A stretch of 64,000 bases of DNA, from the NCBI GenBank assembly GCA_025361365.1, contig JANYAM010000218.1:1642-65641 (forward strand). Direction: 5' to 3'. Shown here one piece after another: positions 12,984 to 41,051 of this stretch (positions are counted from its first letter, which is position 1; every line of letters begins with the position of its first letter). The DNA is from Opitutus sp. GTDB lineage: Bacteria; Verrucomicrobiota; Verrucomicrobiia; Opitutales; Opitutaceae. The translations under genes and the position numbers were made by a program. The notes under the pieces are model-generated. The model had not been told where the DNA came from, did not search any database, and was given only the letters and a program-made list of their open reading frames with translations.

Positions 12984-13110
12984 CGCAAAATCGCAAAGGC
13001 CAAAGGTCCAAACGCCAAAGAAATCCGAAATGAAGTCGCTCTCTGTTTTTAGTCATTTTGCCCTCCGCGCTCTGTTTGGTGTTTTGGCGTTTGGCGTTTG
13101 GAATTTTGCG
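12984..13110 (+). repeat. Long imperfect hairpin enclosing the start codon and signal-peptide codons of paralog 3
   Basis: Left arm 12984-13020 is (CGCAAAA TCGCAAA GGCCAAA GGTCCAAA CGCCAAA). Right arm 13074-13110 is (TTTGGTGTTTTGGCGTTTGGCGTTTGGAATTTTGCG). About 29/37 positions are complementary by hand alignment. Confidence 0.5.
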
Positions 13111-14178
13111 TCCGCTGAGGACGCCATCAAGGTCGGCGAATACGGCGCGTTCTCCGGCAAGGAGGCCGCGTTCGGGCTCTCCGCACGCAAGGGCGCCATC
13201 CTCGCCTTCGAGGAGGCCAACGCCCATGGCGGCGTCCTCGGCCGCAAGGTCGAGCTGCTCACCGAGGACAACCAGTCCAAGGCCGGCGAGTCCGCCACCA
13301 TCGCCAAGAAGTTCGTCTCCCGGGACAAGGTCGTCGCCGTCCTCGGCGGCAACCCCTCCAGCAATTCGCTCGAGGCCGCGCCCATCCTGCAGAACGCGAA
13401 GATCCCGATGATCGCGATCTCGTCGACCAACCCGCGTGTCACCGAAATCGGCAACTACATCTTCCGCGTCTGCTTCATCGACCCGTTCCAGGGCACCGTG
13501 CTGGCGAAGTTCGCCAAAGATACGCTGCACGCCAAGCGCGCCGCCATCATCACCTCCGTCAACAATGCCTATAGCGTCGGTATCTCGAAGGTGTTCCGGG
13601 AAAAATTCACCGCCGCGGGCGGCGAGGTCGTGATCGAGCAAAAGCACAGCGAGGGTGACAAGGACTTCCGCGCCCAGCTCACCGCCATCAAAGCCGCGGG
13701 TGTCGACTGCATCTTCCACTCGAGCAACTACACCGAGGGCGCGCTCATCTGCATCCAGGCCCGGCAGCTCGGCTTCACCGGCCCTCTCTTCGGCGGCGAT
13801 GCCTGGGAGGCCCCGCAGCTCATCGAGATCGGCGGCGCGGCCGTCGAGGGCACCTACTATTCCACCCACGCCTCGCCCGAGTCCACCGCGCCGGTGATGC
13901 AGAATTTCATCAAGAAATTCCGCGCCCGCTGGGACGGCGAGACTCCCGACAGCATCGCCGCCCTCGGCTACGATGCCGCCGCCCTGCTCTTCGACGCCCT
14001 CCAGCGCGCCGGCACCACCGATAGTGCCAAGCTGCGCGAGGCCATTGCGACGACCAAGGATTTTTCCGGGGTCACCGGCCGCATTACCATCGACCAGGAC
14101 CGCAACGCGACCAAGTCGGCGGTCATCCTGACGGTCAAAAACGGCAAATTCGCCTACGTCGAGACGATCGATCCCTGA
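13030..14178 (+). CDS. ABC transporter substrate-binding protein (paralog 3)
   Basis: DAIKVGEYGAFSGKEAAFGLSARKGAILAFEEANAHGGVLGRKVEL; same family as paralogs 1 and 2. Confidence 0.85.
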   Translation: MKSLSVFSHFALRALFGVLAFGVWNFASAEDAIKVGEYGAFSGKEAAFGLSARKGAILAFEEANAHGGVLGRKVELLTEDNQSKAGESATIAKKFVSRDKVVAVLGGNPSSNSLEAAPILQNAKIPMIAISSTNPRVTEIGNYIFRVCFIDPFQGTVLAKFAKDTLHAKRAAIITSVNNAYSVGISKVFREKFTAAGGEVVIEQKHSEGDKDFRAQLTAIKAAGVDCIFHSSNYTEGALICIQARQLGFTGPLFGGDAWEAPQLIEIGGAAVEGTYYSTHASPESTAPVMQNFIKKFRARWDGETPDSIAALGYDAAALLFDALQRAGTTDSAKLREAIATTKDFSGVTGRITIDQDRNATKSAVILTVKNGKFAYVETIDP

Positions 14179-14208
14179 TTAGCCCGGATGGGCGAGGCCT
14201 TCCGGCTA

Positions 14209-14646
14209 GTTGAGAGTTGAGTGTTGAGAGGTGAGAGACTCGACTGATGGAGGCATGTTCAATTTCGAAAAACTGGAGGTCTGGCACAAAGCCGTAGCTT
14301 TCGCTGGCTTGGTCTACCGCCTGAGCAAAGGCTTCCCGACTGACGAACGTTTCGGCCTGACTAACCAGATCCGCCGGGCTGCCATTTCAATCGCATCCAA
14401 CATCGCTGAAGGTTCGGCGCGCCCTCCGGCTGATTTTGCCAAATTCATCGGCTATGCCACTGGCTCCGTTTACGAGGTCATCACTCAGGCCATCGTGGCC
14501 CGGAACGAGAGATTTCTAGGAGGCCCTGAATACGAGTAACTTTACCGTGACGCAGACGAGATTTCCCGCATGCTCAGTGGCCTGAGAAAATCCCTTGAGT
14601 AGCATCGTTTCTGCTCTCAACTCTCATCCCTCAACTCTCAACTCTC
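14209..14646 (+). mobile_element. IVS-like cassette: 29-33 nt inverted repeats flanking a four-helix-bundle gene, inserted between the binding-protein and livH cistrons
   Basis: Left arm GTTGAGAGTTGAGTGTTGAGAGGTGAGAG (14209-14237). The reverse complement of the right arm (14614-14646) matches it at 26/29 positions. The interior has visibly lower GC than the flanks. Confidence 0.5.
14255..14602 (+). pseudogene. Four-helix-bundle protein (23S rRNA intervening-sequence protein family, TIGR02436-like) with an in-frame TAA
   Basis: MFNFEKLEVWHKAVAF...ASNIAEGSAR is typical of the family. TAA lies at 14537-14539. The same frame continues LYRDADEISRMLSGLRKSLE to TAG 14600-14602, which looks like the family's usual C-terminus. 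Confidence 0.7.
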
Positions 14647-14650
14647 CAGA

Positions 14651-15541
14651 GTGTCCGAATTCCTGCAGCAACTTCTCAACGGCCTGTCCCTCGGGGCCAT
14701 CTATGCGCTCATCGCGCTCGGCTACACGATGGTCTACGGGGTCCTGCGCTTCATTAACTTCGCGCATTCGGACGTGTTCATGGTCGGCGCCTTCATCGGC
14801 TACTACATGGGCAAGCTCGTGCCGGAAAACACGGTCTGGGGCGGCCTGATCGTCCTGGTCGTCGCGATGCTCGGTTGCTCCGTGATCGGCATGGTCATCG
14901 AACGGCTGGCCTACCGGCCACTGCGCGGCGCCGCCACGCTTAACGTTCTCATCACCGCCATCGGCGTCTCGCTGCTCCTGGAATATTCGGGCCAGGTCTT
15001 CTTCGGCGCCACCCCGCGCACCTTTCCGGCGGTGTTCCCTTCGGTCAACTTCACGCTCGGCGGCCTGGTCATCTCTTCCAACCAGGTCGTGGTCATCGTC
15101 GTCACCGCGCTGCTCATGGTCGGCCTGCAGGTGATTGTCTACCGCACCAAGATCGGCACCGCGATGCGCGCCGTCTCGCTCAACCCGAAGGCCGCGCAGC
15201 TGGTCGGCGTCAACAACGACGTCGTCATCTCCTTCACCTTCGGCCTCGGCTCCGCCCTCGCGGCCGCCGGCGGCATCCTCTACGCGCTTAACTATCCCTC
15301 GATCGACCCGCTGATGGGCGTCATGCCCGGCCTCAAGGCCTTTGTCGCCGCCGTGCTCGGCGGCATCGGCAATATCCCCGGCGCCGCCCTCGGCGGCCTG
15401 CTGCTGGGCACGGTCGAGACGTTCGTGAACGGCAGCCAGTGGTCGACCTACAAGGACGCCATCGCGTTCGCGATCCTCATCATCATCCTGCTCTTCCGGC
15501 CGGCCGGCCTGCTGGGCAAAGCCACCATCGAGAAGGTCTGA
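14651..15541 (+). CDS. livH: Branched-chain amino acid ABC transporter permease
   Basis: GTG start. LNGLSLGAIYALIALGYTMVYGVLRFINFAHSD is a LivH hallmark. Confidence 0.9.
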   Translation: MSEFLQQLLNGLSLGAIYALIALGYTMVYGVLRFINFAHSDVFMVGAFIGYYMGKLVPENTVWGGLIVLVVAMLGCSVIGMVIERLAYRPLRGAATLNVLITAIGVSLLLEYSGQVFFGATPRTFPAVFPSVNFTLGGLVISSNQVVVIVVTALLMVGLQVIVYRTKIGTAMRAVSLNPKAAQLVGVNNDVVISFTFGLGSALAAAGGILYALNYPSIDPLMGVMPGLKAFVAAVLGGIGNIPGAALGGLLLGTVETFVNGSQWSTYKDAIAFAILIIILLFRPAGLLGKATIEKV

Positions 15542-15547
15542 TTATTT

Positions 15548-15665
15548 ATGGCCACAAAGAGTCACAAAAAATCATTCCTGCCGGCCGACACCTGCGTCGC
15601 GCCTATAGGCGCGCGGAAGATCGACGCCGAAGCCCAGGATAATTTTTGTGCCTTTTCGTGGCAAA
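15548..15665. mobile_element. 118-bp MITE-like palindromic element, CACAAA family, copy 1
   Basis: Arms ATGGCCACAAAGAGTCACAAAAAAT and ATTTTTGTGCCTTTTCGTGGCAAA. Core GCGTCGCGCCTATAGGCGCGCGGAAGATCGACGC. Confidence 0.6.
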
Positions 15666-15691
15666 CCGGTTTGGGAAACCTTCGCTGAGCC

Positions 15692-16636
15692 ATGCCGCGC
15701 CCGCATCTCTATCTCCTCGTCGCCCTGCTGGCCGCCTTCGGGATCTCTTGGTTCTCCGACCGGATCGATCCCTACTACCTCGACGTCCTGATCGGCATCG
15801 GGATCAACATCATCCTCGCCGTCTCCCTCAACCTGGTGAACGGCTACACCGGCCAGTTCTCGCTCGGCCATGCGGGCTTCATGTCGGTCGGCGCTTATGG
15901 CGCCGCCGCGGTGTCGCTCTTCCTCGGCCCCAAGATGCTCGGCGAGGACGGCGGCACCGCGCTGCAACAGGGCCTGATGTTCCTCGGCGCGCTCACCGCC
16001 GGCGGCCTCGCCGCGTCCCTGGCCGGCCTCGCGGTCGGCATCCCTTCGCTCCGCCTCAAGGGCGACTACCTCGCGCTCGTCACCCTTGGCTTCGGCGAGA
16101 TCATTCGCGTCATCTTTCAGAACGTGGAATTCCTCGGCGGCGCCCTCGGCCTCAACGGCATTCCGGCCTACACCTCCATCTTCTGGGTCCTCGCCTTCGT
16201 CGCGCTGGCCGTTTTCACCGTCACCTGCCTTGTGCATTCGACCTATGGCCGGGGGTTCCTCGCCACTAAGGACGATGAGGTCGCCTCCGAGGCCGTGGGC
16301 CTTAACACCACGCGCTACAAGATCGTGGCCTTCGTCATCGGCGCGTTCTTCGCGGGCGCGGCGGGCGGGCTTTACGGCCACTTCAAGATGACCATCACGC
16401 CGACCGGCTTCGACTTCACGAAGAGCATCGAGATCGTCGTCATGGTCATTCTCGGTGGCATGGGCAACACGATCGGCGTCATCCTCGCCGCCATCCTGCT
16501 CACCCTGCTGCCCGAGGTGCTCCGCCCGATCGCCGAATACCGGATGATCATCTACTCGCTGCTCCTGATTGTGCTGATGATCATGCGGCCGCAGGGGCTC
16601 TTCAATTTCAAGTTCGGCAAGACCACGACGCTCTGA
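15692..16636 (+). CDS. livM: Branched-chain amino acid ABC transporter permease
   Basis: LNLVNGYTGQFSLGHAGFMSVGAYG motif and polytopic membrane profile. Confidence 0.9.
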   Translation: MPRPHLYLLVALLAAFGISWFSDRIDPYYLDVLIGIGINIILAVSLNLVNGYTGQFSLGHAGFMSVGAYGAAAVSLFLGPKMLGEDGGTALQQGLMFLGALTAGGLAASLAGLAVGIPSLRLKGDYLALVTLGFGEIIRVIFQNVEFLGGALGLNGIPAYTSIFWVLAFVALAVFTVTCLVHSTYGRGFLATKDDEVASEAVGLNTTRYKIVAFVIGAFFAGAAGGLYGHFKMTITPTGFDFTKSIEIVVMVILGGMGNTIGVILAAILLTLLPEVLRPIAEYRMIIYSLLLIVLMIMRPQGLFNFKFGKTTTL

Positions 16637-16656
16637 TGCGGTTTTTAAATCATTTT

Positions 16657-16774
16657 ATGGCCACAAAGAGGCGCAAAGAATTGTTCGTGCCGCCTGTCAT
16701 CTGCGTCGCGCCCATAGGCGCACTGAAGATTACCGCCGCAGCCTCGGGTGTTTTTTGTGCCTTTTTGTGGCAAA
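16657..16774. mobile_element. 118-bp MITE-like palindromic element, CACAAA family, copy 2
   Basis: Arms ATGGCCACAAAGAGGCGCAAAGAA and TTTTTTGTGCCTTTTTGTGGCAAA. Core CTGCGTCGCGCCCATAGGCGCACTGAAGAT. Same length as copy 1. Confidence 0.6.
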
Positions 16775-16803
16775 TCAATCTGGAGCCTTCCATCTAGCGT
16801 CCC

Positions 16804-17592
16804 GTGCCCGCCCTTCTCCAACTCAACCAGGCCACGATCAAGTTCGGCGGTCTCACCGCCGTCAACGCGGTCGACTTTACCGTCAACGACGGCGAACTGG
16901 TCGGCCTCATCGGCCCCAACGGCGCGGGCAAGACCACCGTCTTCAACCTGATGACCGGCGTCTACCAGCCCACCTCCGGCTCCATCATGTTCAACGGCCA
17001 GCCGCTGGCCGGCCTGCGCGTCAACGAGATCGTCGAGCGCGGCATCGCCCGCACCTTCCAGAACATCCGCCTCTTCGGCTCGCTCTCGGTCTTCGACAAC
17101 GTCCGCGTCGCCTGCAACCTCCACCGCGGCACTTCCCCGATCCAGTCGCTGATCCGCATGGGCGCTTTCAAGCAAGACGAAGCCGAGGTCACCAAACGCG
17201 CCGAGGAGCTGCTCGAAATCTTCAACCTCCGCCGCTTCCGCGACGCCGAGGCCAAGAGTCTGCCGTATGGCGAACAGCGCCGCCTTGAGATCGTCCGCTG
17301 CCTCGCGACCAAGCCCAAGCTCCTCCTCCTCGACGAACCCGCCGCCGGCATGAACCCGACCGAGAAGGTCGAACTCGTCCGCCTCATCCAGCAGGTGCAG
17401 AAACAATTCGGCCTCTCCGTCCTGCTCGTCGAGCACTCGATGAAGGTCGTCATGGGCGTCTGCCAGCGCATCGCCGTCCTCGACTACGGCGTGAAGATCG
17501 CCGAGGGCAACCCGGCCCAGATCCAGTCCGACCCGAAGGTCATCGAGGCCTATCTCGGCGAGGATCACCAGAAATCCCTTTCCCATCACTAA
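16804..17592 (+). CDS. livG: ABC transporter ATP-binding protein
   Basis: Walker A GPNGAGKTT, signature LPYGEQRRLEI, Walker B LLLLDEPAAG. Confidence 0.9.
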   Translation: MPALLQLNQATIKFGGLTAVNAVDFTVNDGELVGLIGPNGAGKTTVFNLMTGVYQPTSGSIMFNGQPLAGLRVNEIVERGIARTFQNIRLFGSLSVFDNVRVACNLHRGTSPIQSLIRMGAFKQDEAEVTKRAEELLEIFNLRRFRDAEAKSLPYGEQRRLEIVRCLATKPKLLLLDEPAAGMNPTEKVELVRLIQQVQKQFGLSVLLVEHSMKVVMGVCQRIAVLDYGVKIAEGNPAQIQSDPKVIEAYLGEDHQKSLSHH

Positions 17593-17596
17593 TTTT

Positions 17597-17680
17597 AAAA
17601 CCGCTAATTGGCGCTAATCTCCGCTAATCATGACTAGTCCAGTCCCGGATTAGCGTAAATTAGCGAAGATCAGCGGTTAA
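17597..17680 (+). repeat. Intercistronic word-built hairpin (CGCTAAT words)
   Basis: AAAACCGCTAATTGGCGCTAATCTCCGCTAATC, an 18-nt loop, then GATTAGCGTAAATTAGCGAAGATCAGCGGTTAA. About 25/33 positions are complementary. Confidence 0.55.
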
Positions 17681-17689
17681 ATTCTAGGA

Positions 17690-18397
<708 letters not shown>

Positions 18398-18416
18398 GAT
18401 TTCCGATCCCCAAACT

Positions 18417-18497
18417 AATCGCGGAAACGCGGAAGAGCGGAGATACGGACAGCGCCTGGCTGTTTCTGCGCTTCCGCTCTTTCGCGCTTCCGCGATT
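18417..18497 (+). repeat. Operon-distal word-built hairpin (GCGGAA words)
   Basis: AATCGCGGAAACGCGGAAGAGCGGAGATACGGACAGC, loop gcctg, then GCTGTTTCTGCGCTTCCGCTCTTTCGCGCTTCCGCGATT. Confidence 0.6.
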
Positions 18498-18568
18498 TCC
18501 CCCTCTGACTGTCCGTTAACTGTTCCGTTGCCGCGCCGCACCCGGCCCGCAAGCTGGCCGGACCCCTT

Positions 18569-21181
18569 ATGAAGACCCCGCGTGCTTTTGTTGCCCTGCT
18601 GAGCTGTATCATTTTTTCCAGCGCGTTGCGCGCGGCCGAGGCCACCGACCTCGCGTGGCCCAGGCTCACCCGCGAGAACAAACCCTGGGCCCGCTGGTGG
18701 TGGCTCGGCTCCGCGGTGGACAAACCCAACCTGACCCGCGAGCTCGAGGCGATCGCCGGCGCCGGCTTCGGTGGCGTCGAGATCACGCCCATCTACGGCG
18801 CCAAGGGCTACGAGGAGCGCTTCATCCCGTTTCTCTCCCCGAAATATCTGGAGATGCTCGCACACACCGGCGCCGAGGCCAAGCGCTTGGGGCTGGGCGT
18901 GGACATGGCCACCGGCACCGGCTGGCCGTTCGGCGGTGCCCAAGTCACCGACGAAGACGCGGAGTTGAAGCTCGCCTTCGGCCCGGACGGAAAAATCGCG
19001 CCCGTCCCGACCAAGTTCAAGGTGAAGCGCTCCGCCCCGGGCGGCGAAGGCTGGGTGCTCAATCCCTACTCGGCCACGGCGCTCTCCCATTACCTCGCGC
19101 CTTTCACCACGGCGCTTTCTACCCTCCCGAAGGGCACGCTCAACGGCCAGTTCCACGACTCCTTCGAATATCAGGCGACGTGGGCGCGAGAGGTGCCGGA
19201 GAAATTCAAAGCCCTCCATGGTTATGATATTCTGGAACACGCCGCCGAGCTGAATGGCCAGGGTGATCCCGACACGGTCGCGCGCATCAAGGCCGACTAC
19301 CGCACCACGCTCGGCGCACTGCATCTCGACTACGTCAACGCCTGGGTCGCGTGGTCCCACTCGCTCGGACAGACCGCGCGCAACCAGGCCCACGGCTCGC
19401 CGGGCAACCTGCTCGATCTCTACGCGGCCGCCGACATTCCCGAGACGGAAATCTTCGGCTCGATCCCTTTCACCATTCCCGGCTTCCGTCGGGAGGCCGC
19501 TGAGATCGGCCGGCCGGGCCACCCGCCCATCATCCACCACTTCGCCTCGTCCGCCGCGCACGTCATGGGCAAGCCCTACGCGTCGTCCGAGACCTTCACC
19601 TGGTTGCGCGAGCATTTTCACGAGTCGCCGTCCGAGATGAAGCCCGAGCTCGACGCGCTCTTCCTCGCCGGCATCAATCACGTCTTCTACCACGGCGATG
19701 CCTACTCGCCCGAGGACGCCCCGTGGCCGGGCTGGCTGTTCTATGCCTCGTCGCAGATCAACACCCGCAACCCGCTCTGGCGCGACCTCGGCGACAGCCT
19801 CAACGCCTACATCGGCCGCGCCCAGTCGCTGCTGCAGGCCGGCAAGCCCGACAACGACCTGCTCGTCTACTGGCCGGCTGACGACCTCTGGCACAACCCC
19901 GAGGGCCAGATGATCCAGCTCACGGTCCACGCCAGCTGGCTCGAGGCTTCGGCTACCGGCAAATTGATGAACGATCTGACGGCAGCGGGATATTCTTACG
20001 ATCTCATCTCGGATGCACAGCTTCAACTGATCCATTTTGAGGATCACGCACTAAAAACTCCGGGCGGTTCATACGGAGCGATTGTTGTCCCAAAAACCGA
20101 ACACATGTCGCTAGAAACCCTGCAACGATTGCTCGCTTTGGCCAATGACGGTGCAGCGGTAATGTTTATCGATTTACTACCGGCCGATGTTCCGGGCTTT
20201 GGCGCACTGGAGTCACGGCGTGCCACGTTCCAAGCGGAATTAGCCCGCCTGAAGTGGAAAACCGTTAATCAAGGTTCGATCAAGCGCGTGGCCGACGTCG
20301 GGCGGGACGGCGTGGTCTTGATCGAGAATGCGGGGACTTACTTCAAAACCGGCACGGCCAAGCAACGTGAAACGATGACTGATTCCGGCCTCAGCTTCAT
20401 CCGCCGGCGCAACGACGATGGCTACACTTATTTCATCGCCAATCAATCGGCTCAACCCTTCGAAGGCTGGGTGCCGCTGAGCCGTCCCGCGCAAGCCGCC
20501 GTGCAAATGAATCCCCGTCGAGGCGGGGCGGGCGTGGCCGCCGTGCGCCAGCGCAACGGCGTGGCCGAGGTGTTCATCCAGCAGGCTCCGGGCGAATCCT
20601 TCTTCATCAAAACCCTGACCGCCCGCGCGGCCATCGGCAACGCTTCACGCTACACGCATCCTGCCGGAGAAGCCGTCGTGTTCGACGGTGACTGGAAAGT
20701 CACAGCGACCAAGGGCGGGCCTGAGCTTCCGCCAGCGTTCACGCAACACGGTTTTGGTTCCTGGACCGCGCAGGGCGGCGAGTGGGAACGCTTCGGCGGC
20801 ACGGCGCGCTACGAAATCGAGTTTACCCTGCCTGCCGGGGCGAAAGCCGACGACTGGCTGCTCGACCTCGGTGATGTGCGTGAGACGGCCCGCGTCTTCG
20901 TCAACGGCACGGAGACTGACCTCGTCTGGTCGCTCCCGATGCGGACGAAGATCGGCTCCTTCCTCAAGCCCGGCAAAAACACCCTCGCCCTCGAGGTGAC
21001 CAACCTTGCCGCCAACCGCATCCGCGACCTCGACCGGCGCAAGGTCGAGTGGAAGAAATTCCACGAGATCAACTTCGTGAACGTCTTCTACCAGCGCTTC
21101 GACGCATCCAACTGGCCCCTGCAGCCCTCCGGCCTCCTCGGCCCAGTAAAGCTAGTGCCGCTGCAGGGGTTCACGCCTTAG
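18569..21181 (+). CDS. Secreted glycoside hydrolase, GH106 (alpha-L-rhamnosidase)-like, with a C-terminal GH2-type sugar-binding-like domain
   Basis: Signal peptide. NKPWARWWWLGSAVD...GFGGVEITPIYG N-terminal pattern and C-terminal LDLGDVRETARVFVNGTE...GKNTLALEVTNLAANRIRDL, as I recall for this family. Family assignment not verified. Confidence 0.55.
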   Translation: MKTPRAFVALLSCIIFSSALRAAEATDLAWPRLTRENKPWARWWWLGSAVDKPNLTRELEAIAGAGFGGVEITPIYGAKGYEERFIPFLSPKYLEMLAHTGAEAKRLGLGVDMATGTGWPFGGAQVTDEDAELKLAFGPDGKIAPVPTKFKVKRSAPGGEGWVLNPYSATALSHYLAPFTTALSTLPKGTLNGQFHDSFEYQATWAREVPEKFKALHGYDILEHAAELNGQGDPDTVARIKADYRTTLGALHLDYVNAWVAWSHSLGQTARNQAHGSPGNLLDLYAAADIPETEIFGSIPFTIPGFRREAAEIGRPGHPPIIHHFASSAAHVMGKPYASSETFTWLREHFHESPSEMKPELDALFLAGINHVFYHGDAYSPEDAPWPGWLFYASSQINTRNPLWRDLGDSLNAYIGRAQSLLQAGKPDNDLLVYWPADDLWHNPEGQMIQLTVHASWLEASATGKLMNDLTAAGYSYDLISDAQLQLIHFEDHALKTPGGSYGAIVVPKTEHMSLETLQRLLALANDGAAVMFIDLLPADVPGFGALESRRATFQAELARLKWKTVNQGSIKRVADVGRDGVVLIENAGTYFKTGTAKQRETMTDSGLSFIRRRNDDGYTYFIANQSAQPFEGWVPLSRPAQAAVQMNPRRGGAGVAAVRQRNGVAEVFIQQAPGESFFIKTLTARAAIGNASRYTHPAGEAVVFDGDWKVTATKGGPELPPAFTQHGFGSWTAQGGEWERFGGTARYEIEFTLPAGAKADDWLLDLGDVRETARVFVNGTETDLVWSLPMRTKIGSFLKPGKNTLALEVTNLAANRIRDLDRRKVEWKKFHEINFVNVFYQRFDASNWPLQPSGLLGPVKLVPLQGFTP

Positions 21182-21186
21182 TTTTT

Positions 21187-21238
21187 TGGAGGGCCGGTCT
21201 CCTGACCGGCCGCGATCGGCCGGGAGGCCGACCCTCCA
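21187..21238. repeat. REP-like doublet, TGGAGGG-headed class
   Basis: TGGAGGGCCGGTCTCCTGACCGGCC...GGCCGGGAGGCCGACCCTCCA, immediately after the hydrolase stop codon. Confidence 0.45.
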
Positions 21239-21281
21239 TTCCGGCCCTTGCGAAACGCGGCCGGCCGGCTAAGGTGCCGTC

Positions 21282-21998: not shown

Positions 21999-22023
21999 CC
22001 CGCGCCACCCCTTGATTTTTTAC

Positions 22024-22051
22024 GGGCGGCCACTAAGTTGGCCGCCCTTTT
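22024..22051 (+). terminator. Rho-independent terminator
   Basis: GGGCGGCC-actaagtt-GGCCGCCC followed by TTTT. Confidence 0.6.
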
Positions 22052-22114: not shown

Positions 22115-23953
<1,839 letters not shown>

Positions 23954-29082: not shown

Positions 29083-29136
29083 GTAGGGCGGTGACTCCGC
29101 TCACCGCCGTGGCGCGGAACGGAGTCCGCGCCCTAC
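29083..29136. repeat. REP doublet
   Basis: GTAGGGCGGTGActccgcTCACCGCC followed by GGCGCGGAacggagTCCGCGCCCTAC, starting at the nucleotide after the NDH-2 fusion stop. Confidence 0.55.
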
Positions 29137-29205
29137 CTTATGTCCCGAAACTCTGTTTGCCAAACCGCCGCCCTGAAGTAGCTTCAACGCTTCACTTTCC
29201 GGCCG

Positions 29206-29661: not shown

Positions 29662-29674
29662 AACATGCCTTGAA

Positions 29675-29748
29675 TGTGGGAGGAACTTTACGTCCCGACA
29701 CGAAAGCGCTACGAACACTTAACGTCGGGGCATAAAGCCCCTCCCACA
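29675..29748. repeat. REP doublet
   Basis: tGTGGGAGGAACtttacGTCCCGACa (29675-29700) and the inverted unit cGTCGGGGCataaaGCCCCTCCCACa (29723-29748), between sufU and sufS. Confidence 0.6.
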
Positions 29749-29778
29749 CTCTCCCTCTCACTTTCCCTCTCAATCGTA

Positions 29779-32808: not shown

Positions 32809-32997
32809 GGGAATACGGGTTGGGGGCGGTCTGATTTCTGCTTGGAAACTACCGGCTTCTCCGCTGTATTCAATCCACCAATAACCTAACCATCATTCCT
32901 GCAGGCGCCCGCGTTGGCCCTGGGAATAGCCGGCCAAGTTGACTGACTTCCCTCGTGCTGAGCCCCTTTGCGCTCTGTCGGAGGTCCCTGCGTCCCC

Positions 32998-34449: not shown

Positions 34450-34452
34450 TTT

Positions 34453-34566
34453 TAGCCACAAAAAGTCACAAAGGGATTTGTCCAGCAGCCGTGAAGCTTC
34501 CGCGCGCCTATAGGCGCCTTGAGGCTTTAACCGGCTCCCATTTTTTTGTGTCTCTTCGTGGCCAAC
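34453..34566. mobile_element. MITE-like palindromic element, CACAAA family, copy 3 (core inverted relative to copies 1 and 2)
   Basis: Arms TAGCCACAAAAAGTCACAAAGGG and TTTTTTTGTGTCTCTTCGTGGCCAA. Core GAAGCTTCCGCGCGCCTATAGGCGCC is the reverse complement of the copy-1 core. Confidence 0.6.
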
Positions 34567-34628
34567 ACCTCTGCTGCCTTTGTTCTGTCCTCCGTCCTCC
34601 GTCCTCCGTCCTTTGACCTCTGTTTCCC

Positions 34629-35945
34629 ATGGCTGACCTCTCCTGCAATCTCGCCGGCATCAAGTCCCCCAATCCATTCTGGATCGGCTCCGGCCCGCCG
34701 GCCAACACCGGCTATCAGGCCCACCGCGCCTTCGAGGCCGGCTGGGGCGGCGTCGTGTGGAAGACCATCGGCACGCCCATCGTCAACGTCTCCTCGCGTT
34801 ACTCCGCGCTCAACCACGGTAAGGACCGGATGATCGGCCTCAACAACATCGAGCTCATCTCCGACCGTGCGCCCGAGACCAACTTCCGCGAGATTGCCGA
34901 GGTCAAGAAGCGCTGGCCGCACCACGCCGTCATCGCCTCGCTCATGGTCGAGACCCGTGAACAGTGGCACGAGTTCGTCCAACGCGCCGCCGATGCCGGC
35001 GCCGACGGCATCGAGCTCAACTACGGCTGCCCGCACGGCATGTGCGAGCGCGGCATGGGCTCGGCCGTCGGCCAGCAGCCGGCCGTCGCCGAGAAGATCA
35101 CGAGCTGGGTCATGGAGAAAGCCACCATCCCGGTGATCGTGAAGCTCACACCGAATATCACCGACATCACCATGGCCGCCCGCGCCGCGAAGCGCGCCGG
35201 AGCCAACGCCATCTCGCTGATCAACACGATCAACTCGATCACCAACGTGAACCTCGACACGTTCGTGCCCGAGCCCACCGTCCGCGGCCTCAGCTCGCAC
35301 GGCGGCTATTGCGGGCCGGCCGTCAAGCCCATCGCGCTGAACATGCTGCAGGCCTGCGCCGCCGACCCCGACGTCAACCTGCCCATCTCCGGCATCGGCG
35401 GCATCACCACCTGGCGCGACGCCGCCGAGTTCATCGCCCTCGGCGCCACCTCGCTGCAGGTCTGCACCGCCGTCATGCACTACGGTTTCCGCATCGTCGA
35501 GGACATGAACGAGGGCCTGAACGCCTACCTGGATTCGAAGGGCATGAAGTCCCTCGCCGACCTCCGCGGCAAATCCGTCCAGAAGCTGCAGAAGTGGGAG
35601 AACCTCGACCTGAGCTTCCAGCGTGTGGCCCGCATCGACTACGACAAGTGCATCGGCTGCAACCTCTGCTACATCGCCTGCGAGGACGGCGCCCACCAGT
35701 GCATCGACCTCAAGTCGCCCGACGAACTCAAGGTCGGCCTCGGCCCGGGCCGCGTGCCACACAAGCCCGTCCCCAAAGTCCGCGAGGAGGACTGTGTCGG
35801 CTGCAATCTCTGCTCGCTCGTCTGTCCCGTGGACGAGTGCATCACGATGGTCGAAATCCCCAACGGCCGGGCGCCAATGACTTGGAGCAACTACCAGGAC
35901 CGCCTCGCCCAAGGCGAAATGAAAGCCATCCCGCCCCACCCATGA
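34629..35945 (+). CDS. preA: Dihydropyrimidine dehydrogenase subunit PreA (DHOD-like TIM barrel plus 2x[4Fe-4S])
   Basis: DHOD-like N-terminus and C-terminal ferredoxin motifs CIGCNLCYIACED and CVGCNLCSLVCP. Confidence 0.85.
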   Translation: MADLSCNLAGIKSPNPFWIGSGPPANTGYQAHRAFEAGWGGVVWKTIGTPIVNVSSRYSALNHGKDRMIGLNNIELISDRAPETNFREIAEVKKRWPHHAVIASLMVETREQWHEFVQRAADAGADGIELNYGCPHGMCERGMGSAVGQQPAVAEKITSWVMEKATIPVIVKLTPNITDITMAARAAKRAGANAISLINTINSITNVNLDTFVPEPTVRGLSSHGGYCGPAVKPIALNMLQACAADPDVNLPISGIGGITTWRDAAEFIALGATSLQVCTAVMHYGFRIVEDMNEGLNAYLDSKGMKSLADLRGKSVQKLQKWENLDLSFQRVARIDYDKCIGCNLCYIACEDGAHQCIDLKSPDELKVGLGPGRVPHKPVPKVREEDCVGCNLCSLVCPVDECITMVEIPNGRAPMTWSNYQDRLAQGEMKAIPPHP

Positions 35946-36340
35946 AAACCAAACTCTTCTGCCTGTTTCTCGTCCTCGCCGCCACGCGCCTGGCTGCCGC
36001 CGACGCTCCCGCGAAAGCCGCGGATACCGACTCTTCCCGCGTCGTGTTCGAGAACGACAAGGTCCGTTGCATTCTCTATCACAACGCGACCGGCAAGAAC
36101 GCCTGTGGATTCGGCATGCATTCGCACCCGGCGCACCTCTATATTCAGATCCAACCGGGAAAATTCCGCGTAACCACCCCGGACGGCAAGACGGAGGTCG
36201 TCGATGGCCCGGCCGGCGACGTCGGCTGGGAGCCCGCGGTCACGCACCGCGTCGAGGGCGTGTCACCCGGCGGCGTCGACACCTATCTCATCGAGGTAAA
36301 GGACAAGGATTGGAAGCCCTCGAACGGCCTGCATCTCTAA
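35942..36340 (+). CDS. Small secreted cupin-like protein
   Basis: ATG overlaps the preA stop (ATGA). Signal peptide MKTKLFCLFLVLAATRLAAA. GMHSHPAHLYI His-rich strand suggests a cupin. Confidence 0.5.
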   Translation: MKTKLFCLFLVLAATRLAAADAPAKAADTDSSRVVFENDKVRCILYHNATGKNACGFGMHSHPAHLYIQIQPGKFRVTTPDGKTEVVDGPAGDVGWEPAVTHRVEGVSPGGVDTYLIEVKDKDWKPSNGLHL

Positions 36341-36352
36341 CCGACTTTCCCC

Positions 36353-37840
36353 ATGTCCAACCTCACCCCCTGTCCCCTGCTTATCAACGGCGAATGGTTG
36401 CAGCCGAAGATTGGCGCCACGCCTGTCTATAATCCGTCCACCGGCGACGTCATCGCCGAGTGCCCCGCGGGCGGCCCGGCCGAGGTCAACGCCGCCGTCG
36501 AGGCCGCGGCGGCCGCCTTCCCCGGCTGGCGCGACACGCCGCCGATCGAGCGCGCACGCGTCTTCTTCAAATACCGCCAGCTCGTCGAGGCCAACTTCGA
36601 CCAGCTCTGCCAGACCGTCTCGCGCGAGCACGGCAAGACCCACGCCGAGGCCCGCGGCTCCATCTTCCGCGGCATCGAGAACATCGAATACGCCTGCGGC
36701 ATCCCCACCCTGCTCTTCGGCGACTCGCTGCGGAACATCGCGCGCGGCGTGGATTGCGACACCATCAACATGCCGCTCGGCGTCTGCGTCGGCATCACGC
36801 CGTTCAACTTTCCCGCGATGGTGCCGCTGTGGATGTATCCCACGGCCATCGCCTGCGGCAACACCTTCGTCCTGAAACCGAGCGAGAAGGTCCCGCTCAG
36901 CGCCGTGCTGCTTGGCCAGCTGCTCGAGCAGGCCGGCTGCCCCAAGGGCGTGTTCAACATTGTCCACGGCGGCCGCGCCTCCGTCGACGCCCTGCTCACC
37001 CACCCGAAGGTGAAGGCGATCTCCTTCGTTGGCTCCACGCCGATCGCGAAATACATCTACGAGACCGGCATCAAGCACGGCAAACGTGTCCAGGCCAACG
37101 GCGGCGCCAAGAACTACATCGTGGTCATGCCCGACGCCGACGTCGGCAAGACCGTCGAAAACCTCACCACCGCCGCCTTCGGCTGCGCGGGCGAACGCTG
37201 CATGGCGGGCTCCACCGCCATCGCCGTCGGCGCGGCGGCCGACCGCGTGCTGCCCGAGCTGGTGAAAGCCGCCAACGCCATCAAGGTCGGCCCTACCGAC
37301 CGCGCCGCGCAGCCCGACATGGGCCCCGTCATCACCGGCGCCCACCGCGACCGTGTGCTCAGCCTCCTCGCCACGGGCGAGAAGGAGGGCGCCAAGATTA
37401 TCGCCGACGGTCGCGGCGTGAAGGTCGCCGATGCGCCGAAGGGCTTCTATGTCGGAGCGACCGTCGTGGACGGCGTGCAGAACAACATGACCCTCGCGAA
37501 GGAGGAGGTCTTCGGCCCCGTGTTGAACGTCATGCGCATGGACGACCTCGACGCTGCCATCGAGCAGGCGAACAAGTCCGCCTTCGGCAACGGCGCCGCG
37601 ATCTTCACCAACAACGGTCGCGCCGCCCGCGAGTTCACGATGCGCGTCAAGGCCGGCATGGTCGGCGTCAACGTCGGCGTCCCCGCCACGATGGCGATGT
37701 TCCCCTTCACCGGCTGGGACGAGTCCTTCTACGGCGACCTCCACATCCAGGGGAAGGAGAGCATCCAGTTCTACACCCAGCAGAAGGTCGTCTCGTCCCG
37801 CTGGTTCGGCGGCGACGTCGGCGACGTGTGGAAGAAATAA
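36353..37840 (+). CDS. mmsA: CoA-acylating (methyl)malonate-semialdehyde dehydrogenase
   Basis: ITPFNFPAMVPLWMYPTAIACGNTFVLKPSEK and GERCMA catalytic-Cys context. Confidence 0.85.
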   Translation: MSNLTPCPLLINGEWLQPKIGATPVYNPSTGDVIAECPAGGPAEVNAAVEAAAAAFPGWRDTPPIERARVFFKYRQLVEANFDQLCQTVSREHGKTHAEARGSIFRGIENIEYACGIPTLLFGDSLRNIARGVDCDTINMPLGVCVGITPFNFPAMVPLWMYPTAIACGNTFVLKPSEKVPLSAVLLGQLLEQAGCPKGVFNIVHGGRASVDALLTHPKVKAISFVGSTPIAKYIYETGIKHGKRVQANGGAKNYIVVMPDADVGKTVENLTTAAFGCAGERCMAGSTAIAVGAAADRVLPELVKAANAIKVGPTDRAAQPDMGPVITGAHRDRVLSLLATGEKEGAKIIADGRGVKVADAPKGFYVGATVVDGVQNNMTLAKEEVFGPVLNVMRMDDLDAAIEQANKSAFGNGAAIFTNNGRAAREFTMRVKAGMVGVNVGVPATMAMFPFTGWDESFYGDLHIQGKESIQFYTQQKVVSSRWFGGDVGDVWKK

Positions 37841-37852
37841 ACCTGATTCTTA

Positions 37853-37923
37853 ACCACGAAATACACGAACCACACGAAAGGATCCGAACCCTAACCTTTC
37901 GTGTATTTGGTGTATTTCGTGGT
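37853..37923 (+). repeat. Intercistronic word-built hairpin (CACGAA words)
   Basis: ACCACGAAATACACGAACCACACGAAAGG, a 13-nt loop, then CCTTTCGTGTATTTGGTGTATTTCGTGGT. Confidence 0.6.
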
Positions 37924-37947
37924 GACCTTGCCTTGAACTGAATTCCC

Positions 37948-39330
37948 ATGAGCTTACTGATCAAAAATGGAGAGATCGTTACCGCGGACTCGCGCTATAT
38001 CGCGGACATCTATTGCGAAGGCGAAACGATCACCAAGATCGACCGGAACATCACCGCGCCGGCCGGCACCGAGATCATCGATGCCAAGGGCAAATACGTT
38101 TTCCCGGGTTTCATTGACCCGCACGTGCACATCTACCTGCCGTTCATGGGCACGTTCTCCAAGGACACCTATGAGACCGGCTCGAAGGCCGCGCTGGTCG
38201 GCGGCACGACGACATTGATCGAGATGTGCTGCCCGGCCCGCGCCGATGACGCACTCAAGAGCTTCGAACTCTGGATGAGCCAGGCGGTGGGCAAGTCGGC
38301 GTGCGATTTCACGTTCCACATGGGCGTGACGAAATTCGACGGCGGCACCGAGGCCCAGCTGCGCGAAATCGTGAAACGCGGCATCGCTTCCTTCAAAATT
38401 TTCCTGGCCTACAAGGGCGCGTTCGGCGTCGACGACACGGAGCTCTACCGGACGCTCAAGCTCGCCAAGGAGCTCGGCGTCATCGTCACCGCCCACTGCG
38501 AGAACGAGACGCTCGTCGCGGAGCGCTGCAAGGAGCTACTCGCCGCCGGCAAGACCGACCCCGGCCAGCACCACGAGAGCCGCCCGCCGGCGGTCGAGGC
38601 CGAGGGCGTGCACCACCTGATGACCTTCGCCGAGCTGACCGGCGCCGCGACCTACATTGTCCACCTGAGCTGCAAGGAGGCGCTCGACCAGGCGATCGCC
38701 GCCCGCCAGCGCGGCGTGCGCGTCGGCGTGGAGACGCTCATCCAATACCTCACCCTCGACAAAACCTACGCCGAGAAGCCCAATTTCGAGGGCGCCAAGT
38801 TCGTCATGTCCCCTCCGCTGCGCGATGCCCGCAACCAAAGCGTCCTTTGGAACGGCCTGCGCGACGGCCTCATCCAGACCGTGGCGACCGACCACGCGCC
38901 GTTCGACTTCGAGAAACAAAAACCGATGGGCAAGGCCGACTTCACGAAGATCCCCAACGGCATCCCCTCACTCGAGGAACGCGTGAACCTGCTCTACACC
39001 TACGGCGTGAAGACCGGGAAGATCGACCTGCACACCTTCGTCAACGTCGCGAGCACGCAGGTCGCCAAGCTTTTCAACCTGTTCCCGCGCAAGGGTGCCA
39101 TCCAGCCGGGCGCCGACGCCGACCTCGTTGTCTTCGACCCGGACTACCGCGGCACGATTTCTGCAAAGACCCAGACCATGAACGTCGATTACAGCGCCTT
39201 CGAGGGCTGGAAGCTCGAGGGTCGGGCCAGCGTGGTCACCGTGCGCGGCCAGATCGCCGCCCAGAACGGCAAGTTCACCGGCACGCTCGGCCGCGGCCAG
39301 TTCCTGAAAAGAACTCCCAGCCATTTTTAG
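37948..39330 (+). CDS. Dihydropyrimidinase / D-hydantoinase
   Basis: FPGFIDPHVHIYLPFMG metal-binding HxH motif, carboxylated-Lys context SFKIFLAYKG, and VATDHAPF. Confidence 0.85.
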   Translation: MSLLIKNGEIVTADSRYIADIYCEGETITKIDRNITAPAGTEIIDAKGKYVFPGFIDPHVHIYLPFMGTFSKDTYETGSKAALVGGTTTLIEMCCPARADDALKSFELWMSQAVGKSACDFTFHMGVTKFDGGTEAQLREIVKRGIASFKIFLAYKGAFGVDDTELYRTLKLAKELGVIVTAHCENETLVAERCKELLAAGKTDPGQHHESRPPAVEAEGVHHLMTFAELTGAATYIVHLSCKEALDQAIAARQRGVRVGVETLIQYLTLDKTYAEKPNFEGAKFVMSPPLRDARNQSVLWNGLRDGLIQTVATDHAPFDFEKQKPMGKADFTKIPNGIPSLEERVNLLYTYGVKTGKIDLHTFVNVASTQVAKLFNLFPRKGAIQPGADADLVVFDPDYRGTISAKTQTMNVDYSAFEGWKLEGRASVVTVRGQIAAQNGKFTGTLGRGQFLKRTPSHF

Positions 39331-39411
39331 CCACGAAAAGGCGCAAGAATGCACAAAGAGAATACCAGGCAGCGGATCGTTTTTGTGTCTTTTTGCGCCT
39401 CTTTGTGGCTA
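39328..39411. mobile_element. Short variant of the CACAAA-family palindrome (no CCTATAGG core)
   Basis: TAGCCACGAAAAGGCGCAAGAATGCACAAAGAG...CTTTTTGTGTCTTTTTGCGCCTCTTTGTGGCTA. The left arm starts on the dihydropyrimidinase TAG stop. Confidence 0.5.
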
Positions 39412-39464
39412 TCCATGCCTTGTAGTATTTTCCAACTCCCATCCCTCAGCCACTGATTTCAACC

Positions 39465-40961
39465 ATGGCCACGCCCTCGCTCACCGCCAACGCGCCGGAC
39501 GTCCAGGTCGATATCCAGACGAGCTACCTCTACAACGAGGACCTCGCGCCGGTGCCGCCGTCGCGGCGCAAGTGGGGCGTGCTGAGCTTCGCGGCGCTGT
39601 GGATCTCGATGTCGGCGTGCATCCCGACCTATATGCTCGCCTCATCGCTCATTGGCGGCGGCATGAACTGGTGGCAGGCGGTGCTGACGATCTTCCTCGG
39701 CAACCTGATCGTGCTCGTGCCGATGGTGCTGAACGCGCACGCCGGCACCAAATACGGCATCCCCTTCCCCGTGCTTTGCCGCGCCTCCTTCGGCACGCGC
39801 GGCGCGAATGTCCCCGCGTTGCTCCGCGCCTTCGTCGCCTGCGGCTGGTTCGGCATCCAGACGTGGATCGGCGGCGAGGCCATCCACAAGATCCTCGCCA
39901 TCTTCATCCCGTCGCTCGCGGGCGGCACGCCGCTGCCCCTGCTCGGCATCACCGGCGTCCAGTTCGCCAGTTTCCTGTTTTTCTGGGCCATCAACATGGC
40001 GGTCGTCTACAGGGGCATCGATTCGATCCGGCTGCTCCTGAACATCAAGGCGCCCCTGCTCATCGCTCTGGGCCTGCTCCTGCTCGGGTGGGCCTACCAG
40101 AATGCCGGCGGCTTCGGACCCATCCTCTCGCAACCGTCTGCCTTCGACGCCGGCCAGGCCAAGGCGGGGCAGTTCTGGGGCTTCTTCTTCCCGGCGCTTA
40201 CCGGCATGATCGGCTTCTGGGCCACACTCTCGCTCAACATCCCGGATTTCTCGCGCTACGCCCACACCCAGCGCGACCAGGTCGTCGGCCAGGCGCTGGG
40301 GCTGCCGCTGACGATGGCGCTCTACTCCTTCATCGGCGTCGCCGTGACCTCCGCCACGACGATCATCTACGGCACGACCATCTGGGACCCGGTGGACGTG
40401 CTCACGCGCTTCAAGAACCCCGCCGTGCTCCTGCTTGCGATGGTTGCGCTGTGCATCGCCACGCTCGCGACCAACATCGCCGCCAACGTCGTGTCGCCCG
40501 CCAATGACTTCGCCCATCTCGCGCCACGCAAAATCTCGTTCCGCCTCGGTGGCTTTATTACCGGGATCGTCGGCATCCTGATGATGCCCTGGAAGCTCGT
40601 CGCCGATCCGAGCGGCTACATCTTCACCTGGCTTATCGGTTACAGCGCGCTGCTGGGGCCCATCGGCGGCATCATGATCGCCGACTACTTCGTCATCCGC
40701 CACCAGCAGCTCGACCTCAAGGCACTTTATGATCCGCACGGCCAGCACAGTTACACCAATGGTTTCAGCACGGTGGCGCTCATTGCACTCATCGTCGCGG
40801 TGCTTCCGGCGCTGCCGGGCTTCCTCGCCCAGGTGCACCTGATCGACGGCACGGGCCTGTCGCCCTTCCTGCTCGGCCTCTACAATTACGCGTGGTTCGT
40901 CGGCTTCGGCCTCGCCTTCACCGTCTATCTGGCCCTCCGGAAGCTTGCGCCCAATTCCTGA
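39465..40961 (+). CDS. NCS1-family nucleobase/hydantoin:cation symporter
   Basis: 12-TM profile. N-terminal NEDLAPVPPSRRKWG and later NIPDFSRY motifs typical of NCS1. Confidence 0.85.
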   Translation: MATPSLTANAPDVQVDIQTSYLYNEDLAPVPPSRRKWGVLSFAALWISMSACIPTYMLASSLIGGGMNWWQAVLTIFLGNLIVLVPMVLNAHAGTKYGIPFPVLCRASFGTRGANVPALLRAFVACGWFGIQTWIGGEAIHKILAIFIPSLAGGTPLPLLGITGVQFASFLFFWAINMAVVYRGIDSIRLLLNIKAPLLIALGLLLLGWAYQNAGGFGPILSQPSAFDAGQAKAGQFWGFFFPALTGMIGFWATLSLNIPDFSRYAHTQRDQVVGQALGLPLTMALYSFIGVAVTSATTIIYGTTIWDPVDVLTRFKNPAVLLLAMVALCIATLATNIAANVVSPANDFAHLAPRKISFRLGGFITGIVGILMMPWKLVADPSGYIFTWLIGYSALLGPIGGIMIADYFVIRHQQLDLKALYDPHGQHSYTNGFSTVALIALIVAVLPALPGFLAQVHLIDGTGLSPFLLGLYNYAWFVGFGLAFTVYLALRKLAPNS

Positions 40962-40970
40962 AAATACCCT

Positions 40971-41051
40971 GACAGAATGAACAAAATGAACAGAATTGAG
41001 GGTTGTTGCTTCAGGAACGAAACCCATTCTGTAAATTCTGTTCATTCTGTC
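40971..41051 (+). repeat. Intercistronic word-built hairpin (GAATGAACA words)
   Basis: GACAGAATGAACAAAATGAACAGAAT, a 29-nt loop, then ATTCTGTAAATTCTGTTCATTCTGTC. Confidence 0.6.

Follow-up and report, generated by a model that had tools for sequence, protein, structure and literature searches.

Tandem-word palindromes between the cistrons of two Opitutus operons and their likeness to 23S rRNA intervening sequences

What are the long palindromes that separate the cistrons of two plus-strand operons in an Opitutus sp. genome, and how do they come to lie there? The window analysed here (the whole stretch of 64,000 nucleotides; GC ~66%) holds a liv-type ABC transporter operon, after which comes a GH106 gene, and a reductive pyrimidine-catabolism (pyd) cluster; ten junctions in these two operons each contain one long imperfect palindrome whose arms consist of tandem words of 7–10 nt (Table 1). 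An earlier interpretation made from the letters alone, referred to below as the sequence-only reading, had seen in them an element class that it could not match to a described one, either diverging very fast or generated locally. The explanation that we favour, with moderate confidence, is that the ten features comprise palindromic elements of the type known as intervening sequences (IVSs) from 23S rRNA genes, together with hairpins that contain no open reading frame (ORF), which sit at intercistronic junctions and would be cut by RNase III when transcribed.

All ten inverted repeats were recovered at the positions given by the sequence-only reading, and their placement in same-strand intercistronic gaps was borne out. 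The folding energies of the nine short hairpins lie between -34.7 and -54.5 kcal/mol, whereas their shuffles average -13 to -37 (z scores -4.2 to -9.2), with 0/200 dinucleotide shuffles equally stable in every case, and the tandem-word build of the arms, likewise claimed before, was called independently by Tandem Repeats Finder: the arrays have period 7 at 12994–13020/13074–13101 and 14208–14237/14614–14646, period 9 at 37855/37897 and 40972/41026, period 10 at 17601 and 39380, and period 16 near 18459–18499. Autocorrelation gave word periods of 7 (12984, 14208), 8 (the arm at 18417), 9 (37853, 40971) and 10 (the CACAAA family, 17597, 39328). Many hairpins have common AACC[AG]C...G[CT]GGTT termini, across different word families, and within the window tandem-word hairpins are confined to the liv and pyd operons; the remaining gaps contain GC-rich, GTAG/GTGGG-headed palindromes resembling repetitive extragenic palindromes (REPs), terminator-like stems, or nothing. 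The 5' arm is mostly purine- and A-rich in the hairpins with words of 8–10 nt, which is a real property since the arms of a palindrome are identical on both strands; as a sign of orientation with respect to transcription it was rejected, because a palindrome reads the same on both strands. The rule that the 5' arm carries A-tracts has exceptions: in relatives, one common family carries TTTTCGA words in this arm.

Table 1. Positions of the features discussed, in window coordinates.
Feature	Position	Strand	Location and description	z score
liv-type ABC operon	10665–18397	+	three Peripla_BP_6, two BPD_transp_2 and two ABC_tran genes	
ORF-less hairpin	12984–13110	+	36-nt arms, period-7 words CAAAGGC/GTTTGGC	-4.2
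Cassette left arm	14201–14237	+	GTTGAGA-type heptamers x4; period 7, 4.3 copies	
S23p ORF	14255–14539	+	94 codons; PF05635 (23S rRNA intervening-sequence protein, four-helix bundle), E 2.8e-27	
Cassette right arm	14614–14650	+	TCTCAAC-type heptamers x4–5; ends 1 nt before LivH start codon	
CACAAA-family hairpin	15548–15665	+	LivH-LivM junction; period-10 words, conserved GCGCCTATAGGCGC loop core	-4.7
CACAAA-family hairpin	16657–16774	+	LivM-LivG junction	-4.9
CGCTAAT-word hairpin	17597–17680	+	LivG-LivF junction; period 10, AACCGC...GCGGTT termini	-6.7
CGCGGAA-word hairpin	18417–18497	+	between LivF (last ABC gene) and GH106; 25-nt arms, 92%	-8.1
pyd cluster	32968–43568	+	PydA-like genes, Aldedh, dihydropyrimidinase-like, NCS1 permease, aminotransferase	
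CACAAA-family hairpin	34453–34566	+	between two PydA-like genes	-4.9
Solo heptamer array	34587–34612	+	GTCCTCC x3.7, pyrimidine-rich, 100% matches, just 5' of gene at 34629	
CACGAAA-word hairpin	37853–37923	+	Aldedh-dihydropyrimidinase junction; period 9	-9.2
CAC/GCGC-AAAG-word hairpin	39328–39411	+	dihydropyrimidinase-NCS1 junction; period 10	-8.2
ACAGAATGA-word hairpin	40971–41051	+	NCS1-aminotransferase junction; period 9	-7.2
RNaseP_bact_a (RF00010)	62092–62499	-	bacterial class A RNase P RNA; Rfam, 233 bits	

The feature at 14201–14650 provides the connection to IVSs. Its repeat (14209/14646) had been taken for a simple hairpin, but the arms in fact bracket an S23p (PF05635) ORF, which is present in this feature only, the other nine being ORF-less. 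The arms are 37 nt long, 84% complementary and built of 4.3–4.7 copies of a period-7 word, and the long-range stem is present in the minimum free energy fold of 14195–14655 (z -2.7). The nearest solved structure to the encoded protein is the pentameric four-helix bundle XCC0516 (PDB 2gsc_A, E 1e-18). An in-frame TAA at 14537–14539 ends the ORF early: the same frame runs on to 14602, and this stretch keeps the conserved C-terminal 20 residues (LYRDADEISRMLSGLRKSLE) of relatives that encode 115–117 aa. Frameshifted or truncated S23p ORFs also occur in five orthologous loci (L017, L050, L052, L053 and L057), and this decay in Opitutaceae echoes that reported for Coxiella.

In Coxiella burnetii the 23S rRNA IVS measures 428–444 nt and carries an S23p ORF in the loop of a 28-bp terminal inverted-repeat stem, which consists of 3–4 tandem heptamers (GACAGAT) whose number varies between strains; the first repeat is where RNase III cuts, and the ORF is undergoing reductive evolution (PMC4990558). 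The sequence-only reading had held the build of its hairpins to be undescribed, but tandem-heptamer stems around an S23p ORF are thus published, and 14201–14650 matches them. More generally, 23S IVSs with S23p (Leptospira, Coxiella burnetii, Brucella, Azospirillum) share with this cassette a length of ~430–450 nt, a PF05635 ORF in the loop that is often decaying, a ~28–37 bp stem of 3–5 tandem heptamers in variable number, and a highly conserved host transcript. They differ in location, which is helix 9, 25 or 45 of the rRNA as opposed to a junction between cistrons of a protein-coding operon; the neighbours of the cassette are a Peripla_BP_6 gene and a BPD_transp_2 gene, and it does not lie in an rRNA gene. 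They differ also in that nine of the ten window features are ORF-less and eight have words of 8–10 nt. By its composition, 14201–14650 is a complete cassette of the 23S rRNA IVS type with a decaying S23p gene; it has every structural mark of an S23p-type IVS but the location, and for that reason is not filed as an rRNA IVS. The survival of an S23p gene and of the same repeat-built stem in one palindrome suggests that the IVS type of element may also colonise ordinary operons.

We compared 86 orthologous Opitutaceae operons, 80 liv (L001–L080) and 6 pyd (L170–L175), where labels of the form Lnnn stand for compared loci, be they from relatives, plasmid copies or metagenome contigs. The closest relatives of the window are metagenome-assembled genomes of Lacunisphaera, Oleiharenicola and Opitutus (Opitutaceae, Verrucomicrobiota). 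Its liv operon is identical to that of contig JAYSMV010000039.1 (assembly GCA_043724365.1), and the near-identical assembly L168 has 100% identity over the whole operon, so that this last comparison is uninformative on hairpin micro-evolution. At the junction of the third binding-protein gene and LivH a cassette is found in 29/80 loci, with the words GTTGAGA, GTTGAAA/GTTGAAG or GCTGAGA/CAGAGC, all copies in both arms changing together. A second S23p subfamily, with (A/G)GTGACn arms and proteins that also match PF22296 bAvd, occupies the junction between the Aldedh and dihydropyrimidinase genes (Aldedh-DHP) of L170, L171 and L173. The first S23p protein search yielded only close relatives among the matches listed, and the distant subfamilies were found by tblastn on plasmids and by look-ups in pyd operons. 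Period-7 inverted arms are present in ~66/73 evaluable metagenomic S23p loci (~90%), and plasmid copies at 34–41% identity have the words TAGGGAG (Nostoc), AAGGGAA (Geminocystis), TCAGAAk (Trichormus) and GGAGAkG (Leptolyngbya). The match on an Azospirillum lipoferum plasmid (L164) lies inside large-subunit rRNA (Rfam, 2540 bits) and is a genuine 23S IVS, its S23p ORF being closed by a ~33-bp stem of GGACrGA heptamers (z -8.7).

Among 54 distinct two-heptamer stems 92.7% of cells pair, a figure inflated by the choice of rows as best inverted repeats, while slid registers fall to 30–45%; the excess of compensatory changes is unaffected by that choice, with 69 double-sided changes against 20.7 +/- 5.5 in shuffles (0/500) and a covariation score of 0.262 vs 0.111. 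These comparisons show predicted stems in which both arms stay complementary while the word changes. The usual place of the S23p cassettes is a gap between cistrons, as between sdhA-like and sdhB-like genes, two PilT-like ATPases, nrdB and nrdA, cas6 and cas4, an AAA ATPase (parA-like) and parB, and a leukotoxin-secretion-like gene and a toxin-secretion ABC transporter gene, with the S23p gene antisense to its neighbours in the nrd and toxin-secretion cases.

How the junctions change between relatives bears on the origin of the hairpins. In the 80 orthologous liv operons junction lengths are bimodal at all three sites: LivH-LivM is tight (1–10 nt) in 36/78 loci and otherwise filled with 38–328 nt, LivM-LivG is tight (-4 to 14 nt) in 41/79 and filled with 29–197 nt or at least ~500 nt, and LivG-LivF is tight (-1 to 17 nt) in 23/76 and filled with 78–264 nt, with no intermediates of 20–70 nt among the 76 loci. 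Empty sites read CACTGA(GCC)ATGCTC, GTCTGAGCCATGCC and CTGATGCC, and the tight ancestral junctions were presumably translationally coupled. Nearly all filled LivG-LivF junctions contain one long tandem-word hairpin, drawn from at least 13 word families (CGCTAAT, CACTAAT, CACGGATGAA, TTTTCGA, CGAATGA, TGCGGAAT, TTACGAAT, TAAGC, CACAGAGG, CACGAAA, CCGGAAAC, CGCGAAG and CGCGAAT), and close relatives with 93–95% LivM identity differ here by an empty junction or another hairpin family. The pyd operons vary in the same manner: Aldedh-DHP has the S23p cassette in three relatives, a hairpin of the window's CACGAAA family in L172, a CACAGAG hairpin in L174 and a PDDEXK_3 gene in L175; the dihydropyrimidinase-NCS1 junction measures 1 nt in L170 and L174 and is filled in the other pyd relatives; and at the NCS1-aminotransferase junction of L175 lies a hairpin of the window's ACAGAATGA family whose loop contains a nested REP. 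These comparisons show that the hairpins are insertions into ancestrally tight junctions with rapid turnover, and that the intercistronic junctions of the liv and pyd operons are general landing sites.

The LivM-LivG gaps of at least ~500 nt hold small inserted genes, judged by sequence appearance. Gaps of 490–582 nt were considered as sites of further S23p genes and rejected, as their contents look like a membrane protein (an ORF of ~162 aa in some of the large gaps) or a toxin-antitoxin-like pair (72–74 + 101–105 aa); loci with ORFs in this gap are L006, L011, L012, L014, L022, L030, L031 and L049. A gene pair at 3489–4022 of L173 has precomputed Pfam matches to Unstab_antitox and, weakly, to ParE_toxin.

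The fast divergence proposed by the sequence-only reading is thus matched by quick turnover between related genomes, but its view that architecture alone is conserved is not supported: the hairpins of each word type form a sequence family that recurs across several genomes, in some cases at unrelated sites. The CGCTAAT family of 17597–17680 recurs at LivG-LivF in L012, L018, L031, L059 and L068, the CACGAAA family at unrelated sites in L013, L036, L038, L061 and L067, and the CACAAA family has four copies in the 64-kb window with a conserved loop, 15548–15665 being 80.5% identical to 16657–16774 and 84% to L037. The statement that the arms share no sequence was only partly true, given these families in relatives and the shared termini. 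Its second option, local generation, would have the words arise by slippage and the arms by intrastrand template switching (quasi-palindrome correction) or register-shifted hairpin fill-in, followed by selection for an RNA stem. This agrees with the joint change of word copies in both arms (GTTGAGA, GTTGAAA, GCTGAGA), with variable heptamer copy number (Coxiella strains included), with three window hairpins that have no relative in 1.5 Mb of related sequence, and with a Pseudanabaena S23p gene flanked on both sides by long direct heptamer arrays. However, individual families are found at more than one junction and in more than one genome, the split into tight and filled junctions with no LivG-LivF intermediates fits insertion better, and there is no wobble excess on the mRNA strand. 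We consider local generation as the source of the elements very unlikely, although it may remain the way in which the arms grow.

Within the heptamer class, ORF-less hairpins are linked to S23p cassettes directly. In 12 genomes ORF-less hairpins with the cassette's own words (GAGCTGAGAGC / AGAGTTGAGAG) lie at LivH-LivM; in L009 an arm of the LivH-LivM hairpin pairs with the left arm of the S23p cassette of the same genome (97% over 33 nt); and ORF-less heptamer hairpins adjoin cassettes in L085, L107, L135 and L165. Frameshifts in S23p ORFs, or their loss, are common, and in many cases only the right arm is left, just upstream of LivH. The hairpin at 12984–13110 and the array at 34587–34612 are ORF-less or one-armed relatives of the heptamer class; the Azospirillum 23S IVS has as its stem word the reverse complement of the latter, GGAGGAC/GGACGGA, and the array is read as a probable right-arm-only remnant of an S23p-type cassette. 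Persisting solo right arms would reflect either biased deletions or use of the right arm as the leader of the downstream gene.

Solo right-arm arrays were observed just 5' of LivH in L008, L011, L012, L031, L032, L039, L045, L051, L056, L068, L071, L074 and L077. All six pyd relatives (L170–L175) likewise have a solo pyrimidine-rich heptamer array, which stands upstream of the second PydA-like gene or in the equivalent gap, the first between cistrons.

For the eight window hairpins with words of 8–10 nt the link to S23p is indirect, by architecture and shared junctions: tandem-word arms, a purine/A-rich 5' arm, the niche between stop and start codon, and alternation with S23p cassettes. Because they are interchangeable with S23p cassettes at the same junctions in relatives, we read them as probable ORF-less elements of the same or a sister architectural class. 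The alternative is that two unrelated classes are present, the heptamer elements being S23p/IVS and the 8–10 nt hairpins resembling MITEs (transposable elements of the miniature inverted-repeat kind) or palindrome-associated transposable elements (PATEs), non-autonomous, moved in trans by a transposase and with stems that converged on a similar form. The word periods differ (7 vs 8–10), the terminal motifs are common to different word families, the families recur at unrelated sites, and the CACAAA family is multicopy with a conserved loop, as described above. In addition, no S23p gene with 8–10 nt words was found in 1.6 Mb: the S23p hidden Markov model, run against all ORFs of 161 sequences (1.57 Mb), recovered only the known cassettes and two extra copies, and a scan for long-loop hairpins found ORFs only inside heptamer stems. 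It is this lack of S23p with such words, together with the common AACC[AG]C...G[CT]GGTT termini, that makes a separate MITE-like class a serious rival. On the other side, no parent insertion sequence, transposase or target-site duplication was seen, the hairpins have their arm build, purine/A-rich 5' arm and stop/start niche in common with S23p cassettes, and they alternate with these at Aldedh-DHP among relatives. On these grounds we think two classes rather unlikely and retain the reading of one IVS-like architecture.

Several observations weigh against this IVS-type reading. The period of eight of the ten window features is that for which no flanked S23p gene was found; the right arm alone is kept in many lineages, so the stem is not always maintained; the pairing percentage given above is inflated; and in the loci compared (not whole genomes) no target-site duplication, transposase or excision product was seen. 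Comparison of filled with empty sites gave no evident direct repeat, and the TTAA beside AACCAC/GTGGTT ends is itself palindromic. Mismatches in the stems also fail to favour the transcript: across 81 ORF-less hairpins sense-strand A.C mismatches exceed G.T (125 vs 76) and the antisense strand folds better in 61/81, while 75 S23p stems are at parity (G.T 38 vs A.C 36). As there is no wobble excess, complementarity is not detectably kept for the mRNA strand, and it could be kept at the DNA level, not by selection on mRNA folding. The A.C skew probably reflects the excess of C over G in the coding strand and not function. Selection at the RNA level on the hairpins was therefore dropped, given the opposite skew in ORF-less hairpins and the parity in S23p stems.

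The hairpins may have a role in mRNA processing, as raised by the sequence-only reading, but the mismatch statistics give no sign of mRNA-strand selection and the hairpins have no terminator-like tails. RNase III needs roughly two helical turns. Stems of 25–40 bp exceed this, and the similar stems of rRNA IVSs are cut (PMC4990558), so that transcribed elements are probably cleaved as well. The elements sit precisely in the gap from one cistron's stop codon to the start codon of its successor. In the proposed mechanism RNase III would cut their stems in the polycistronic mRNA, as with rRNA IVS stems, splitting the operon transcript between cistrons and uncoupling translation of the neighbouring genes. 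We infer that the elements would be mainly selfish or neutral passengers, parts of which may have been co-opted, for instance as a signal peptide and possibly as leaders upstream of start codons.

Alternatively, the hairpins could be RNA elements dedicated to regulating these two operons for nitrogen compounds, for instance as attenuators, terminators or protein-binding leaders. Their confinement within the window to two transport/catabolic operons would fit this, as would the result of a strict detector, which found 39 tandem-word hairpins inside the liv operons of relatives and 10 outside, three of these ten being the window's own pyd-operon hairpins; the regions flanking the liv operons held mostly REP-like palindromes in the same scan. 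However, scans for terminators and promoters at the hairpins gave counts equal to shuffle expectation, with no sense-strand terminator-like call and no T-tail, and only one terminator-like call overlaps a hairpin at all, a weak 5-pair stem on the minus strand (39354–39341). A scan of the whole window with Rfam 15 at gathering score returned only the RNase P RNA and no hairpin match. Finally, orthologous junctions are often empty or filled with unrelated sequence or small genes, and so no conserved regulatory element is required at any junction. We therefore grant a regulatory purpose hardly any probability, and return to IVS-type elements as the preferred explanation.

The sequence-only reading did not recognise a described element class in the hairpins, and the Rfam result and the lack of GTAG-type REPs among them agree with this. 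RAYT-associated palindromes of the REP type and the bacterial interspersed mosaic elements (BIMEs) built from them, such as the intercistronic REP of E. coli malE-malF, can stabilise upstream mRNA segments. Like them, the window hairpins are palindromic and intergenic, often lie between the cistrons of transporter operons and nest in one another; unlike them, they are longer, AT-richer and headless, and have tandem-word arms. REPs are GC-rich, 20–40 nt long and have a GTAG/CGTC head (PMC3733652), whereas the arms found here start with AACCGC, ACCACG, GCCACA, GACAGA or AATCGC and have a GC content of 0.31–0.60.

With bacterial MITEs (Correia/NEMIS, RUP, ERIC, Nezha) the hairpins have in common that they are non-autonomous, 70–130 nt long, show presence/absence polymorphism, are co-transcribed with genes and fold to long RNA hairpins, and terminal inverted repeats with dispersed copies were indeed found for the CACAAA and CACGAAA families. 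Correia elements are cut by RNase III. The differences are that no target-site duplication or parent insertion sequence was found and that the arms are internally repetitive, many word families sharing one architecture.

The closest known systems also include the intergenic heptamer repeats (TAACTGA) of Beggiatoaceae and the short tandemly repeated repetitive (STRR) arrays of cyanobacteria (PMC4679880). They are similar to the elements described here in being intergenic tandem heptamers with a lineage-dependent word, and on cyanobacterial plasmids such arrays directly flank S23p genes, a link observed at seven plasmid loci only; they differ in being described as direct repeats with neither partner arm nor ORF. 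On a plasmid of Pseudanabaena galeata (L165; NZ_CP112875.1, 46268–46627) long direct heptamer arrays lie on either side of the S23p gene that separates cas6 from cas4, with AAAGCTA x16 upstream and AAAGCCA x10 downstream; inverted TTAGCTT arrays also occur nearby. These arrays suggest a possible link between S23p genes and the cyanobacterial STRR repeats.

S23p shares its four-helix-bundle fold family with Avd, the accessory protein that diversity-generating retroelements encode (PF05635/PF22296 relatives). Avd forms pentamers and binds nucleic acid. Around the S23p cassettes examined there was neither a reverse transcriptase nor a template or variable repeat. A bolder proposal is that S23p pentamers recognise their own lineage-specific word arrays, protein and arrays together forming the propagating or maintenance unit of all IVSs. 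We rate this as quite unlikely, and mention it for its consequences: if it were true, rRNA IVSs would be only the most familiar landing site of a much wider class aimed at the stop/start junctions of conserved operons, ORF-less hairpins would be non-autonomous derivatives served in trans and STRR arrays their debris, the origin of IVSs would be explained and PF05635 would gain a function.

The origin of IVSs was described as still unclear more than 25 years after their discovery (PMC4990558), and they have so far been treated as a peculiarity of rRNA genes. Our search of the literature, incomplete in its coverage, turned up no earlier account of IVS-type cassettes within mRNA operons, nor of the Opitutaceae hairpins. 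The new points here are the wider habitat of IVS-like elements and the build that unifies them: hosts of the S23p cassette with a heptamer stem include Verrucomicrobiota, Cyanobacteria and unassigned soil and freshwater metagenome contigs, and ORF-less hairpins of IVS-like build saturate operon junctions in Opitutaceae. This offers a larger and more tractable set in which to ask how such elements move and what S23p does, and possibly a general way for operons that are tight and translationally coupled to be split up into segments processed separately. It also carries a warning for annotation, as hairpin arms can be read as coding sequence and the elements break metagenome assemblies and inflate intergenic length.

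Such use of an arm as coding sequence appears to have occurred at 12984–13110. The ATG of the third binding-protein gene (13030) lies within the hairpin loop and the 3' arm inside its coding sequence, where the T-rich TTTGGTGTTTTGGCGTTTGGCGTTTGG encodes the hydrophobic core of the signal peptide LFGVLAFGVWNF. The same arrangement is present in L020 and L067, while in the empty-junction relatives L026 and L044 stop and start overlap as GTGATG and the signal peptide is unrelated; the palindromic element thus appears to have been co-opted, as far as can be told from these alignments.

Among the further features of the window are the REP-like palindromes mentioned above, which are GC-rich, GTAG/GTGGG-headed and in part arranged as inverted doublets (4405–4480, 7177–7248, 7965–8022 with perfect 24-bp arms, 9259–9328, 21187–21245, 29072–29147 and 29672–29751); in L065, L077 and L175 such palindromes are nested in the loops of tandem-word hairpins. 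Patches of low GC (0.48–0.53) occur at 19980–20260 (in the GH106 gene), 47980–48260, 54980–55480 and 63180–63480, and these four patches are free of tandem-word hairpins. Between the second PydA-like gene and the Aldedh gene, positions 35944–36340 contain an ORF of 131 aa with a signal-peptide-like N-terminus and no Pfam match, and unannotated ORFs are found at the equivalent position in L173 (130 aa) and L171 (159 aa).

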